From NCBI GenBank assembly GCA_043809645.1, contig JBDROX010000044.1, forward strand, positions 767-64,766: a DNA stretch of 64,000 nucleotides. Direction: 5' to 3'. A model generated the notes under the pieces. It saw only the letters and a list, made by a program, of their open reading frames with translations. It was not told where the DNA came from and made no database searches. Origin of the DNA: Candidatus Magasanikiibacteriota bacterium. GTDB lineage: Bacteria; Patescibacteriota; Patescibacteriia; Magasanikbacterales; UBA922. A program made the position numbers and the translations under genes. This document shows, piece after piece, positions 1 through 5,145 of the stretch. How positions within the stretch are numbered: position 1 is the first letter of the stretch; every line of letters starts with the position of its first letter.

Positions 1-590
1 TCTGGCTACACTGAAAAATGTTTTGAATTTAAGAAAGGAATCAATCGACAGTAAATCATCAGCCATTGAGTTTACATTGCCAACAGTAAACAAAGATATT
101 ATGCTTTGTGTAGAACAAAAAATGAAAGAAACGGAAAAACAACTTAAACAATTCAATCAACCCGTCCAAACTCTTCTCCAAACCATCCCCGGAGTTGGAC
201 CTCTTACGGCTGTCGCCTGTATTTCAGAGATAAAAGATATTACAAGATTTAAAAAAGCAAAACAACTCATCGCCTTCATCGGTATAGACCCAAAAGTACA
301 CTAATCCGGATCTTCCATAGATAAATACAGAAAGATATCCAAACGAGGCAGTAAAATACTCCGCACCCGACTTTACAACGCCTGTAGTGTTGCCACGCTC
401 CGTGACAATCAATTCAAACACCATTTCCAAAAGAAAAAAAGCCAAGGCAAGCCCCATAGAGTAGCTATAGTCGCCACCATGAATAAAATGGCCAAAGTTA
501 TCCATTCCGTATGGACAAACAACACTCCTTACCAAGAACCGAATCAAGAGAGATAATCATAAAAGAGAGGTTAAACCTCTCTTTTATACA
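1..590 (+). mobile_element. IS110-family insertion sequence, 3' part (5' end cut by window edge); terminator-like hairpin 556-580 after the transposase stop
   Basis: Translated frame carries typical IS110 transposase C-terminal motifs (IPGVGPLTAVACISEI...FIGIDPKVH-SGSS...GSKILRTRLYNA...GKPHRVAIVATMNKMAKVI); abuts a truncated copy of the local repeat family. Confidence 0.7.
2..550 (+). pseudogene. IS110-family transposase C-terminal region; single continuous frame with one in-frame TAA at 302-304
   Basis: Frame 2 is open from nt 2 to 550 except TAA at 302-304 (KVH*SGSS; family consensus has Q/H-SG here); N-terminus lies outside the window. Confidence 0.7.
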
Positions 591-594
591 CAGG

Positions 595-630
595 GTGGGC
601 TTGTGTGGGATATAGATAGTTGGGCGATGT
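595..630. repeat. Truncated copy (element Z, 3' arm only) of the attC-like repeat family: ...GGATATAGATAG-t-GTTGGGC-GATGT
   Basis: Matches the 3' arm consensus (stem1-3' / GTTRRRY / GATGT) of elements A-E; the 5' part is replaced by the IS110 sequence. Confidence 0.5.
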
Positions 631-670
631 AGCTACAAATACCTAATCCTTATTTGTGTTTAGTGTTATT

Positions 671-1159
671 TTACTTAGTGCTTTTGAAAGTTTTTCCAAT
701 GGCCTCAATCTCATTTAGCCTGTCAATTACATCTGGTTCTGGTTCCCAATTAATATAATACGAATAAACATTTTGGTTATCCTCTCCAATATATTTTTCC
801 ACCAAATGATTATACTGATCCCATTTTTCTTTTGGAACAATAACCAAAACAAATAGTGGCTTATCATCAAAGATAACATCAATGGCCATATTTGTTTCAA
901 ACCCATTTGTTTTATTATTCATTAAGTCTACGGTTCTATCAGAGGTTTTAAATCCGCGCCACGTGCTTGGAAATGTTAGCTCAAATTCGTATTTTTCATT
1001 CTTATATTTTTCAGAAGGGGTTAGTGATTGCTGGGTATTTTGTGGTGCAGGGATGATTGGCTGATTGGATTTACTGTTTATAAAAAAATATGTTGCTATT
1101 CCTGCCAGAATAACCATAACTCCTAAAATTGCAGTAACTATTTTTTTATTCATATTCAT
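671..1159 (-). CDS. Hypothetical signal-anchored/secreted protein (162 aa)
   Basis: N-terminal hydrophobic helix (IVTAILGVMVILAGIATYFF); no recognisable domain; flanked by 14/15-bp inverted repeats AGCTACAAATACC (636-650) / GGTATTTGTAGCT (1212-1224). Confidence 0.55.
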   Translation of the reverse strand: MNMNKKIVTAILGVMVILAGIATYFFINSKSNQPIIPAPQNTQQSLTPSEKYKNEKYEFELTFPSTWRGFKTSDRTVDLMNNKTNGFETNMAIDVIFDDKPLFVLVIVPKEKWDQYNHLVEKYIGEDNQNVYSYYINWEPEPDVIDRLNEIEAIGKTFKSTK

Positions 1160-1224
1160 TGTTATTAGTAGATTAATATTTTGTTATTGTGTCCAAAAAA
1201 TAAAATAAAGGGGTATTTGTAGCT

Positions 1225-1360
1225 ATTTCGTATAACGTTCGCGTGTATGCGATGTTTGCTGGCTGTATACTAACGCGAAGCGGTACAGCCAGCAAATATG
1301 GGTGCAGTGAGGAGGAGGTACGACGACGAACGGAACCGCATATTCTGTGTTGTACGATGT
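1225..1360. repeat. attC-like structured element A (136 bp): ATTTC-GTATAAC-GTT / stem1 / stem2 TTGCTGGCTGTA...TACAGCCAGCAA / ATATGGGTG / ...AACC-stem1' / GTTGTAC-GATGT
   Basis: Conserved ends and central motif shared with B-E; perfect 12-bp inner inverted repeat 1256-1267/1284-1295. Confidence 0.6.
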
Positions 1361-1394
1361 AATGAAAAATTTATCCATTAAAAATTATTTGGGG

Positions 1395-2213
1395 CTACTT
1401 TTTTGGGTAAGGAATTGGGAAAACTCCTTTTAACTTCATGACGGCGGGTGAAGCAGTTTTTGCATTCACTTTTGCCATAAAGTTGTACTTTTCAAGTGTT
1501 GTAAGCTCACTCGGATTCATTTCTGGGTGATATTTGTTGATTAAATTGGCCGTATCCATATCAACTAAATAACAGATTACATGGTTGGCCGCTTCAAGCA
1601 AACGATCAATAACGTCTGTTCGGTAAAGCTTGGCGAATTGGTCTAACAGGATACACGAAAAGCCTTTTTCTTTGATTTGTGCGATTTGCTGGAATACTTC
1701 TTCATCTAAAAAGTTATGAGCTTCGTCGATTGCGAGTGTGCGATTGTCACTGCCAACAACTTGCAAAAACTGTTTCACCAGGTAAGTGCCGAGCTTTTTT
1801 GTAACGTCTTCATCTAAAGTCTTGTAGTCCAGTCTGCATAGGAGAAACTTTTGGTCGTCTTTTTGCATTTCCATAAAGTCAATTTCTTTCTGGAACCTTG
1901 CCACATTTTCATCAAAGGTTCCTGTTTGCGCTTCAAATACTGTAACTTTGTCTGCCTTGCCTGCCGGAATATACGCTTGTATATCTCTAATGAGATCACC
2001 GTGAGGCTCAATGAGAATGCCTCCTCTTCCGTTGTAGATGTCCGAAATAATAATGTTTTCGATTGTTACAGATTTGCCTTGGCCTGAATGACCAAATAAA
2101 TACATGATTCCAGAACGTTCTTCTGAAGAAAGACTAAAAGTTTCTCCGTTTTCTAGTACACCAATTAGTGATAATCCTTCTTTGATGATGTTTTCCATAG
2201 TGTTTGTATGCAT
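1395..2213 (-). CDS. P-loop NTPase, HerA/FtsK/VirB4-like (Walker A GHSGQGKS, Walker B/DEAH-like AIDEAHNF), short form (272 aa)
   Basis: Motifs read directly from the translation; family assignment approximate. Confidence 0.55.
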   Translation of the reverse strand: MHTNTMENIIKEGLSLIGVLENGETFSLSSEERSGIMYLFGHSGQGKSVTIENIIISDIYNGRGGILIEPHGDLIRDIQAYIPAGKADKVTVFEAQTGTFDENVARFQKEIDFMEMQKDDQKFLLCRLDYKTLDEDVTKKLGTYLVKQFLQVVGSDNRTLAIDEAHNFLDEEVFQQIAQIKEKGFSCILLDQFAKLYRTDVIDRLLEAANHVICYLVDMDTANLINKYHPEMNPSELTTLEKYNFMAKVNAKTASPAVMKLKGVFPIPYPKK

Positions 2214-2218
2214 ATGAA

Positions 2219-2270
2219 TTAGTTAGTTAGTTAGTTAGTTAGTTAGTTAGTTAGTTAGTTAGTTAGTTAA
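2219..2270. repeat. Tetranucleotide microsatellite (TTAG)12-TTAA; on the coding minus strand it reads TTAA(CTAA)12 ending 5 nt before the ATG of the ATPase gene
   Basis: Perfect tandem repeat visible in sequence; places TAA stops in all three frames upstream of the start codon. Confidence 0.95.
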
Positions 2271-3846: not shown

Positions 3847-4402
3847 GCGCTTTTATTTTCTTTATAAAATCTGGCATTAACATTTCTAATTTCATGATAC
3901 TGTTCTGCAAAATTTCATCATAGATTTTTATTCTGGTTTCATAATTAGTCATTGCTCCATTATTAACTCTGTAACTTTCTCTACTTTGTATAGTTTCATT
4001 TATCTCGTTTGTAAGTTTTGTTATTTTTCTCATTTCTTCAAGTAAATCTGCTTGGTTTTTAAATAAGCTGGGACAATTCATTGTTAAAAAAGAAGAGAAG
4101 TCACCGTTTAGTTTAACTAGAGGCTTTACAATTATTTTTTTTTGTTCGAGAACATTTAGTTCTTGTAAGATTGTCTGCTTATTATCTTTAAGTTCTGAAA
4201 TATTTGTCTCTAATTCATGCGCGATTGTAGTTAAACTATTTTTTTCTTGTTTAATTGATTTATATTTGTCCCAAGCAATCGTTAGGGCAACTCCAATTAA
4301 TGCGACAATTACACCAGTAAAAAAAGAAAAATAATCAAAACTTACTGTGTTTTGCACAGGGGTATTATTTGGCTTCCATTCTGATATAGTTAAATTTTGC
4401 AT
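3836..4402 (-). CDS. Hypothetical membrane-anchored coiled-coil protein (188 aa)
   Basis: One TM helix (FFTGVIVALIGVALTIAW) followed by coiled-coil-rich sequence; no recognisable domain. Confidence 0.5.
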   Translation of the reverse strand: MQNLTISEWKPNNTPVQNTVSFDYFSFFTGVIVALIGVALTIAWDKYKSIKQEKNSLTTIAHELETNISELKDNKQTILQELNVLEQKKIIVKPLVKLNGDFSSFLTMNCPSLFKNQADLLEEMRKITKLTNEINETIQSRESYRVNNGAMTNYETRIKIYDEILQNSIMKLEMLMPDFIKKIKAHIS

Positions 4403-4426
4403 GTCTAATTGATTTTATAAAAGCGC

Positions 4427-4568
4427 ATTTCAGCTAAACGTATCCAAATATCTGAAGTTTGCTGGAGTGTAACGAAAGCAAATTTGGGTCGAAAAAGTTT
4501 TGCGTTCCTTAATTTAAAAATCTAATAAGGCAAAACTTTTGAGCCAGATATTTGGTGTTGTGTGATGT
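4427..4568. repeat. attC-like structured element E (142 bp): ATTTC-AGCTAAAC / stem1 CCAAATATCTG...CAGATATTTGG / TTTGCT...AGCAAA / TTTGGGTC / GTTGTGT-GATGT
   Basis: Outer stem 4444-4454/4545-4555 fully complementary; most divergent member. Confidence 0.55.
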
Positions 4569-4587
4569 TGCCAAAAAGCTTCGTTGT

Positions 4588-4962
4588 TTATTGATCAATA
4601 ACTTTGTCTGTTTTCAAAACCTCTCGTTTGTCTTCACCTGTCGGCACTTGCTTGATAACTAGAAACTTCACAATTTCGCTAGTATGATTGATGAAGGTGT
4701 GCGGGGTGCTTTCTGTCTCAATCAAATCACCAGCTTTGACGATCTGACTTTCGATTTTATCGCCGACCTTCCACTCAGCAGTAAGTTCGCCTTCGATAAT
4801 ATACAAACTTTCCAAAATCTTCTCGTGGTGATGCCAGGTTTGAGTTGACCCCGCCACCTGCTCGTTGTAGTGCAATTCATACTCTTGGCGAAGATAATAG
4901 CGAACGTTTGTCCCTTCGGGTTTTGAAACAGACAAAGATTCCTCACGTTTAATTATTTTCAT
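4588..4962 (-). CDS. Cupin-domain protein (124 aa)
   Basis: Cupin motifs (HHHEKILESLYIIEGEL ... GDLIETESTPHTF). Confidence 0.7.
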   Translation of the reverse strand: MKIIKREESLSVSKPEGTNVRYYLRQEYELHYNEQVAGSTQTWHHHEKILESLYIIEGELTAEWKVGDKIESQIVKAGDLIETESTPHTFINHTSEIVKFLVIKQVPTGEDKREVLKTDKVIDQ

Positions 4963-4998
4963 AGCACTAATCTTATTTTTTAGAAAAGCTTTTTGGCA

Positions 4999-5010
4999 AT
5001 TTCGTACAAC
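4999..5010. other. Isolated left-end box of the repeat family (ATTTC-GTACAAC = GTTGTAC-GAAAT on minus strand) with no partner arm: attI-like half-site at the head of the cassette array
   Basis: Only the 12-nt conserved end is present; the following sequence diverges from all elements. Confidence 0.4.
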
Positions 5011-5097
5011 TATGTATATACCAACTTCTAAATATTTTTGCTGAGTTATAGTATAATTTACTCAGATAATTCCATTCAGAAGGTGGTTATGAATGGA

Positions 5098-5125
5098 ATT
5101 ATATCATGTGTGATATTGTCGGCAA
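5098..5125 (-). promoter_or_regulatory. sigma70-like promoter on minus strand (TTGCCG-N16-TATAAT) pointing into the cassette array
   Basis: Perfect -10 hexamer and 4/6 -35 hexamer with 16-nt spacer, 136 nt upstream of the first cassette ORF. Confidence 0.45.
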
Positions 5126-5145
5126 ACTATCTTTATTATCAATTC

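Follow-up and report, generated by a model that had tools for sequence, protein, structure and literature searches.

IMEX (integrative mobile elements exploiting Xer) include the CTX phage, which XerCD integrates at the chromosomal dif site via a folded single-stranded attP, and in the single-recombinase system XerS/difSL the dif site lies next to xerS. The pdif modules of Acinetobacter plasmids are bounded by XerC/D sites as well, which are 28-bp duplexes in alternating orientation. Integrons are the model of gene capture, and the I2 helix of their recombinase IntI is held to have enabled single-strand recombination (PMC7790495). Here I describe an array of six small genes at positions 590-5130 of a 64,000-nt stretch (the window) from a Candidatus Magasanikiibacteriota bacterium (GenBank assembly GCA_043809645.1, contig JBDROX010000044.1, positions 767 to 64,766). 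The array is, with good probability, an integrase-less array of six mobile cassettes that belongs to an integron-like system distinct from classical integrons.

The initial annotation had seen in this region six single genes on the minus strand, separated by one family of repeats of 88-153 bp that are bounded by RYYYAAC and GTTRRRY boxes, and this description held. The list of open reading frames (ORFs) of the window contains six co-oriented minus-strand ORFs between 671 and 4962, one per cassette, and the repeats amount to five complete copies and one truncated copy, with boxes of the RYYYAAC...GTTRRRY type at the ends of every element. Counted from the proximal end, cassette 1 (4439-5009) carries a cupin gene (4588-4962, Cupin_2), cassette 2 (3742-4438) a membrane/coiled-coil gene (3836-4402) that matched no Pfam family, cassette 3 (3073-3741) a NUDIX hydrolase (3221-3697), cassette 4 (2330-3072) a HAD hydrolase (2408-3016, HAD_2/Hydrolase), cassette 5 (1236-2329) a P-loop ATPase (1395-2213, AAA_22), and the distal cassette 6 (631-1235) a gene for a secreted, signal-peptide-like protein (671-1159) with a weak match to PsbP_2. 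All cassettes and elements are on the minus strand, and the GC content of the array (0.30-0.37) is lower than the ~0.43 of the flanking genome. Stop codons had been described as overlapping or abutting the gene-proximal box, which is the case for three genes: the stop of the membrane protein gene (3836-3838) overlaps the R'' box of its cassette and those of the HAD and NUDIX genes lie 1-6 nt from ACATC, whereas the other three are 19-40 nt away. The 5' leader of the ATPase cassette contains a (TTAG)13 microsatellite (2219-2270), which could be a phase-variable spacer.

The complete repeats are attC-like elements that lie between the genes: E1 (1225-1360, 136 nt), E2 (2319-2406, 88 nt, the minimal form of the family), E3 (3062-3214, 153 nt), E4 (3731-3846, 116 nt), and E5 (4427-4568, 142 nt). 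The truncated terminal copy (590-630) consists of the 5' part of an element, with ACATC at 626-630, an R'' box GCCCAAC at 619-625 and ~30 nt of inner sequence as far as CACCC, and it adjoins the remnant of an IS110-family gene. Read on the gene strand, the 5' half of an element is composed of ACATC, RYYYAAC, A, an 11-nt stem arm, GGTTC, a variable hairpin, and CACCCAWATT, and the 3' half of a second variable hairpin, AACWTC, the complementary stem arm, NAAC, GTTRRRY, and GAAAT. The sites are three-way junctions with conserved inner motifs and cassette-specific outer arms.

A covariance model of the family (R1) was built from 26 members, two of them from the window. Run with filters off and at E ≤ 10, R1 returned exactly five complete elements in the 64 kb, with E-values from 3e-19 for E2 (88.3 bits), through 2e-16 for E4 (77 bits), 2e-14 for E5 (68.6 bits; absent from the training set) and 9e-12 for E1 (57.9 bits; also folded), to 6e-9 for E3 (46.5 bits). 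No copy was found outside 1225-4568, and the truncated copy is below detection by this model. Similarly, a degenerate 32-nt version of the 3' motif occurs four times in the window against 0.03 occurrences expected. Over 150 elements, 92.3% of cells were paired, compared to 25-38% in slid controls; this alignment was fitted to the model, and an independent MAFFT alignment of the 26 sequences gave 93% for stem 1. All 11 pairs of stem 1 vary on both sides and both junction helices covary. The variable positions of the R boxes are mostly unpaired within a single element, as expected of hybrid junctions.

Element E1 deserves a separate remark. The two halves of its stem 1 mismatch each other (CAGAATATGCG vs CGCATACACGCG), with a 5' half like the elements of one locus type (L076) and a 3' half like those of another (L017), which suggests a hybrid site from an exchange within the element rather than at the G/TT step of the GTTRRRY box (the slash marks the step here and below).

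The structural signals of the family are on the strand opposite the genes. The motif GCGNAGC, a DNA GNA mini-hairpin that also forms the tip of attC(aadA7), was found 38 times on that strand, in 30 of 79 elements, and not once on the gene strand. Non-Watson-Crick pairs in stem 1 are G.T on the bottom strand in 23 cases and on the top strand in 8, and at one pair position of helix B a non-pair is conserved in 145 of 150 elements, reading A.C on the gene strand and T.G on the bottom strand. Taken together, the GNA tips, the G.T bias, and the A.C non-pair point to folding of the bottom DNA strand rather than to a structure of the sense RNA.

The outer arms connect the two ends of a cassette across its gene. 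Among 112 cassettes, the ~12 nt following R'-GAAAT agree at 0.80-0.88 per position with the reverse-complemented ~12 nt that stand before the cassette's own ACATC-R'', compared to ~0.30 when arms of different cassettes were matched as a control, with an invariant two-base mismatch in the outer block (GAAAT vs GATGT). Arms flanking one and the same element match at ~4 of 12 positions. This complementarity runs ~17 positions past the 7-bp box into cassette-specific sequence, and in the window it brackets each gene as an inverted repeat of 19-31 nt: I7 around cassette 1 (25 nt, 84%), I11 around cassette 2, I1 around cassette 3 (31 nt, 90%), I4 around cassette 4 (25 nt, 92%), I3 and I5 around cassette 5, and I17 around cassette 6, the arms of which lie at 631-643 and 1212-1224. 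At 48 informative junctions, the variable bases of R' agree with the R'' of the cassette downstream 29 times and with the R'' of the same element only twice. This puts the cassette boundary at or next to G/TT, which is characteristic of integron cassettes. A cassette on the gene strand consequently reads (G)TTRRRY-GAAAT, a ~12-nt specific arm, the ORF, the complementary arm, ACATC-RYYYAAC, the three-way-junction element, and NAAC-G. Cassettes have a median length of 648 nt, of which the longest ORF takes up a median of 84%; this ORF is co-oriented in 104 of 111 cassettes.

One of the cassettes in the window was found in a second context. A Candidatus Uhrbacteria array also holds the NUDIX cassette, at 84% nucleotide and 87% amino acid identity and between unrelated neighbours, and the similarity stops at the R'' box. 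Between the two copies, a T to C change is present in both arms and is compensatory.

The 3' motif is present in at least 119 genome stretches when searched in contigs of one genome per species. Most of the hosts are Patescibacteria, i.e. bacteria belonging to the Candidate Phyla Radiation (CPR), including Uhr-, Magasanik-, Moran-, Peregrini-, Gracili-, Saccharibacteria and others. The window belongs to Candidatus Magasanikbacteria, in agreement with the small-genome lineage expected for it. Judged by the labels of metagenome-assembled genomes (MAGs), further hosts are DPANN archaea, Omnitrophota, Gammaproteobacteria, Bdellovibrionales, and Mycoplasmatota. R1 detected 242 elements in the first 100 loci, on a single strand per locus with one exception, and the remaining loci and three viral contigs carry further clustered copies. 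Near-identical site sequences occur in MAGs labelled bacterial and archaeal, which hints at cassette traffic between the domains.

The three viral contigs, from IMG/VR, carry 5, 3, and 4 elements at 6651-8690 (L120), 4830-5617 (L121), and 9570-10505 (L122), respectively. In the latter two the elements are spaced by ~250-300 nt, so that cassettes must be very short or empty there. NUDIX hydrolases are the commonest cargo, with a cluster in 15 loci (among L001-L119 and L125-L134), and other cargo comprises methyltransferases, APH-type kinases, metallo-beta-lactamase-fold proteins, GIY-YIG proteins, a deaminase, and a cyclodipeptide synthase.

Clustering the ORFs of the 119 loci placed a tyrosine recombinase of ~270 aa in the top cluster, with 23 loci. 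Its gene adjoins the array and is usually divergent from it, and the distance from a lone GTTRRRY-GAAAT half-site to its start codon has a median of 95 nt and a range of 50-196 nt. The 23 recombinase-proximal sites share the consensus ..aatTcg.ATAaaAACtA/GTTa..cGAAAT, in which the base before GTT is A at 21 of 23 sites, compared to C at 77 of 79 cassette sites. The linkage also held in the opposite direction: loci that were reached from homologues of the protein, independently of the element, carry elements in seven of seven cases (1, 3, 7, 2, 1, 2, and 7 copies), with all elements on the divergent upstream side of the gene and none downstream. A different layout is found in a Candidatus Altarchaeum locus (L049), where the recombinase (699-1757) has a ~65-aa N-terminal extension and is encoded on the same strand as the array (1848 onward), with the half-site 3' of the recombinase stop; this resembles an 'inverted integrase' and is unlike the divergent bacterial loci.

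The recombinase has the Pfam domains PF13495 and PF00589. Among NCBIfam models it scored best on the integron-integrase subfamily model TIGR02249, with 205-247 bits (cutoff 265) in two stretches, and on the archaeal XerA model NF040815, with 212-245 bits (cutoff 220) and two of three proteins above. By both sequence and fold, the nearest solved relative is VchIntIA, followed by XerA (5hxy, E = 1e-40). Identity to IntI1 is 29-38% and the catalytic R-K-H-R-H-Y residues are retained, but a 31-aa segment of IntI1 and ~12 further residues are missing from the family recombinases. The alignment with VchIntIA skips residues ~210-240 and an AlphaFold model (pLDDT 85) has no helix at the position of the IntI insertion; the missing stretch is the IntI-specific insertion (I2 helix) by which integron integrases are defined. 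The recombinase has at least 5,845 relatives, which databases name XerD, tyrosine recombinase, or 'site-specific tyrosine recombinase/integron integrase'.

The head of the array in the window follows the pattern of the recombinase-proximal sites. The lone half-site GTTGTAC-GAAAT at 4999-5010 (ATTTCGTACAAC) that the initial annotation had pointed out was recovered as part of an attI-like site on the minus strand (4999-5026), which reads AGTTGGTATATACATA followed by GTTGTAC-GAAAT, has A rather than C before GTT and no inner element preceding it, and fits the consensus of the 23 sites. Upstream of it, a candidate Pc promoter directed into the array, TTGCCG-16-(TG)TATAAT, is present on the minus strand at 5098-5125 (5125 to 5098) with 10 of 12 consensus positions and a TG extension, and may be the promoter of the array. 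Where complete loci carry the recombinase gene, which starts 50-196 nt from GTT, the window has a duplicate of the 3' end of a pyrimidine-fusion gene (5123-5236, minus strand; direct repeat D2 of 114 nt, 85% identical to 6064-6177), and this duplication probably marks the rearrangement by which the recombinase gene was removed or displaced. The two duplicated copies bracket a fragment of an FkbM-type methyltransferase gene (5281-5544). Both of them also contain GTTGGGC-GAGGC-ATCTACAA on the minus strand, which agrees at 17 of 20 positions with the last cassette's 3' end (619-638) read as its reverse complement, and this may be a secondary recombination site or a scar of the loss of the recombinase gene.

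I propose the following mechanism for the formation of such arrays. In a free circle, the single site of a cassette would fold into a long imperfect hairpin, most likely as a single-stranded bottom strand in vivo. From the outside, this hairpin would begin with the arm duplex, followed by a 5-bp block in which two mismatches are fixed and by the 7-bp R box; further in would come a one-sided bulge of 3-4 nt and a stem of 11 bp that contains an invariant TAT core, closed by the junction of the two variable hairpins that are often capped by a GNA mini-hairpin. The ~270-aa recombinase, as I2-less kin of IntI and archaeal XerA, would exchange strands at or next to G/TT; its partner would be either the attI-like site, a simple duplex next to the recombinase gene, or a second cassette site, and the product would presumably be resolved by replication. 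Opening the circle at G/TT would leave the two halves of the outer stem on both sides of the gene, which would explain the pairing of arms across genes. Cassettes would then be transcribed from a promoter upstream of attI. On the Magasanikbacteria contig the attI-like site has been kept while the recombinase gene was lost or displaced by rearrangement, and the array would therefore be frozen or served in trans.

Whether the whole family represents an undescribed and widespread integron-like system of gene capture in CPR and DPANN, in which an I2-less recombinase of the IntI/XerA branch acts on three-way-junction sites with stems that run on into cassette-specific sequence, is a proposition on which I find the case evenly balanced. 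The site family, or cassette arrays with an I2-less enzyme, were not described in the searchable literature, which misses most subscription journals, and I hold with moderate confidence that the system has so far gone undescribed.

Several observations weigh against the proposed cassette system. No recombination event, circular cassette, terminal overlap, or strain polymorphism was seen in the loci examined. The initial annotation was right that the window holds no tyrosine recombinase: a tblastn search of the 64 kb with 24 family recombinases gave a best match that was spurious (E = 0.014). The promoter that it placed upstream of the array exists as a motif match, yet such matches are not enriched in this AT-rich region, with 28 found compared to 22.7 ± 5.2 in shuffled sequences. 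Given the published view of the I2 helix (PMC7790495), the use of folded sites by an I2-less enzyme is a hypothesis. Some of the locus labels (Gammaproteobacteria, Bdellovibrionales, and Actinomycetota MAGs) may be due to mis-binning, and the model of classical attCs used for comparison (R2) is a proxy built from seven validated attCs and not the model of IntegronFinder.

Of the competing explanations, the one that survives best makes the enzyme the single housekeeping Xer of its host and the attI-like site its dif, with cassettes as small integrative units that use Xer in the manner of the CTX phage, through folded single-stranded mimics of dif, and pile up there in tandem. It is in line with scores on XerA models that are as good as those on IntI models, with an I2-less protein made of a SAM-like N domain and a catalytic domain, and with a number of relatives that is expected of a core gene. 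In several loci, furthermore, the recombinase is directly followed by housekeeping genes on the same strand (Fic-dnaG-rpoD, uvrB, rluD-rplS, lepA-atp), and precedents are available for a dif beside its recombinase gene (XerS/difSL) and for XerCD acting on folded single-stranded DNA of the CTX phage. However, the presence of cassettes at all seven independently sampled loci would be unusual for a plain dif, the cassettes have an integron-type single-ORF organisation and are devoid of replication or transfer genes, and the attI-like site kept in the window has no recombinase as its neighbour. A look for a replication terminus in the window found no DnaA and no sign change in skew. I regard this explanation as unlikely overall, and it differs from the integron-like cassette system in the other roles of the enzyme but not in how arrays are formed.

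It is very unlikely that the array is an ordinary integron remnant, i.e. a cluster of attC sites lacking integron-integrases (CALIN) with divergent classical attCs and a canonical IntI elsewhere in the genome. The RYYYAAC/GTTRRRY boxes, the boundary at G/TT, and the bottom-strand GCGAAGC tips as in attC(aadA7) are compatible with such a remnant, and DPANN archaea were reported to carry classical attCs and a few IntIs (PMC9668308). The check with an attC covariance model, which had been suggested for the elements, turned out negative with the proxy model: R2 detected attCs in a four-cassette class 1 integron (aac(6')-Ib-cr/arr-3/dfrA27/aadA16) with 59 bits for aadA16, 22.6 bits for dfrA27, and 20.6 bits for aac(6')-Ib-cr, these three being independent of the model, and with a weak score for arr-3, while in the window it placed all five elements below threshold and gave spurious best matches (E ≥ 0.84). 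In the reverse test, R1 found no match in class 1 integrons. The archaeal attCs of Ghaly et al. 2022 and attC(aadA7) have the common layout RYYYAAC-AAnTC-nTTCAAGC... with an inner part unlike that of the window family, and none of the archaeal contigs in the set of at least 119 loci is present in the supplement of that study. The inner motifs, the three-way junction, and the ~17 extra paired positions have no counterpart in classical attCs, and every array-adjacent recombinase is without the IntI insertion and below the TIGR02249 cutoff. The cassette and recombination reading is nevertheless right in kind, and it was kept despite the miss of the attC model on the independent evidence of the arms, the boundary, and the recombinase linkage. 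An integron architecture is accordingly what remains of the initial annotation, and the identity as a classical attC/IntI integron or CALIN is what had to be given up.

The third explanation, that the elements are non-mobile structured repeats between genes, be it of the REP/BIME kind (repetitive extragenic palindromes and bacterial interspersed mosaic elements), terminators, or a cis-acting RNA motif, is highly improbable. Stable folds between convergently spaced ORF ends would suit it, as would a strong terminator-like hairpin at 558-588, just 3' of the IS110-family gene. A scattered REP-like family had been named beforehand as the alternative to consider and it fails, with zero copies outside the array in the 64 kb and copies elsewhere clustered on one strand. 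Rfam 15 at gathering score gave two tRNAs and nothing else in the window, and even at E ≤ 1 no family was matched, with the best array matches (E = 0.26 and 0.62) far under gathering. The conserved A.C mismatch and the lack of GNA tips on the transcribed strand speak against a sense RNA, and the pairing of arms across genes, the behaviour of the boundary, and the linkage to a recombinase are not expected of REP sequences. Lastly, it is hardly credible that each gene is a small transposon or unit like a miniature inverted-repeat transposable element, moved by a transposase such as that of the IS110 family. Inverted repeats of 19-31 nt surround every gene and an IS110-family gene adjoins the array, which would suit such units, but the outer ~12 nt are cassette-specific and hence offer no shared end for a transposase to bind, an IS110-type gene is not recurrent in the 119 loci whereas the tyrosine recombinase is, and the IS110 copy has a premature stop.

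A number of other candidates were discarded in the course of the analysis. A hammerhead-like core (CUGAUGA...GAAA) was dropped on inspection by eye, with motifs that misfit and differ among the copies. A motif match at 19603 lies inside a coding gene and is due to chance, and a match to AATTTGGGT at 18554 is unsupported by the covariance model. An imperfect palindrome at 44206-44227 (ATTTCGTAAAAC joined to GTTTTGAAAT), 65 nt downstream of tRNA-Asn (44069-44141), resembles two R-box/GAAAT half-sites placed back to back; it is isolated, has a model E-value of 1.1, and was rejected as a member of the family.

The IS110-family transposase gene at the distal end of the array is represented in the window by its 3' part (1-556, plus strand), both halves of which match PF02371. 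The gene has a single TAA in frame (302-304), where its relatives presumably carry Gln; it is likely a pseudogene, and the array's distal end is interrupted or terminated by it. Its position abutting the truncated site recalls, by analogy, the IS1111-attC group, which targets integron attC sites; its second junction lies beyond the window.

Upstream of the array, the window encodes two large fusion proteins of pyrimidine synthesis on the minus strand, namely one of dihydroorotate dehydrogenase, orotate phosphoribosyltransferase (OPRT), and orotidine monophosphate (OMP) decarboxylase (6068-8602, 844 aa) and one of dihydroorotase and aspartate carbamoyltransferase (8613-10865, 750 aa). The best matches of the OPRT-OMP-decarboxylase half include plant, algal, and animal uridine monophosphate synthases with 39-57% identity among CPR relatives with 51-67%, a pattern for which inter-domain transfer is a possible cause. 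The gyrB gene appears split into two minus-strand ORFs with ~190 nt between them, an N-terminal ATPase part and a C-terminal part at 28549-29796 and 29983-30630, which an error of assembly, a frameshift, or the remnant of an intein could explain.

If the proposed system is real, single-strand-type cassette recombination would be possible without the I2 helix of IntI. A system that combines integron architecture with a different site fold and an enzyme lacking I2 would put the published view of I2 (PMC7790495) to the test. The system would be a sister or an ancestor-like form of integrons, or else an independent invention based on Xer, and would supply candidates for the evolutionary route that connects Xer and IntI. 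It would also mean that current integron finders miss a whole class of cassette arrays. No detectable attC was found on 97% of contigs with integron-type recombinases, with 'novel attC sites' among the explanations considered (PMC13323075, 2026), and sites of the family described here could account for a part of these attC-less recombinases in metagenomes. Finally, dedicated gene exchange would be revealed in CPR and DPANN, the reduced genomes of which are usually credited with little accessory capacity.

With pdif modules the array has in common that small gene modules are bounded by sites of a tyrosine recombinase; the sites of the window family are, however, structured, 88-210 nt long, and all in direct orientation. 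The single-recombinase Xer systems (archaeal XerA/dif and XerS/difSL) are alike in the size, the PF13495 and PF00589 domains, and the fold of the enzyme and in having an adjacent duplex site, but they resolve chromosome dimers and are without cassette arrays. IMEX and CTX share the Xer-type recombinase without I2, the recombination of a folded single-stranded hairpin with a duplex chromosomal site, and tandem accumulation at that site. In contrast to the window family, IMEX are phages or islands that bring genes for their own replication or transfer and not single-ORF cassettes with a common conserved site, and IMEX arrays of more than five units with conserved sites per unit are not known.

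As in a CALIN, at least two cassette sites (five complete ones) are present in the window with no recombinase in the 64 kb; unlike in a CALIN, which is by definition called with the classical attC model, the sites are not recognised by that model, a proxy here, and an attI-like site has been kept. Integrons are the closest match in organisation. Here, too, the recombinase gene is divergent from an array of compact, co-oriented cassettes that mostly hold a single ORF, a simple attI-type site lies beside it, and the cassette sites are imperfect palindromes bounded by RYYYAAC and GTTRRRY. The boundary is at or next to G/TT, a cassette begins with bases complementary to the box at its own 3' end, signals of structure are on the strand opposite the genes, and the best match of the recombinase is VchIntIA. 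The differences are a recombinase that is ~50 aa shorter and without the I2 helix, an 11-bp covarying stem with a three-way junction marked by GGTTC, CACCCAWATT, and AACWTC, ~17 extra paired positions outside the R boxes (GAAAT/ACATC and the cassette-specific arms), and covariance models that do not cross-detect, with a proxy on the classical side. With three-way-junction sites, all five of them missed by the proxy attC model, and a recombinase without I2, this is not a classical integron but an integron-like system, the hosts of which are CPR bacteria and DPANN archaea.

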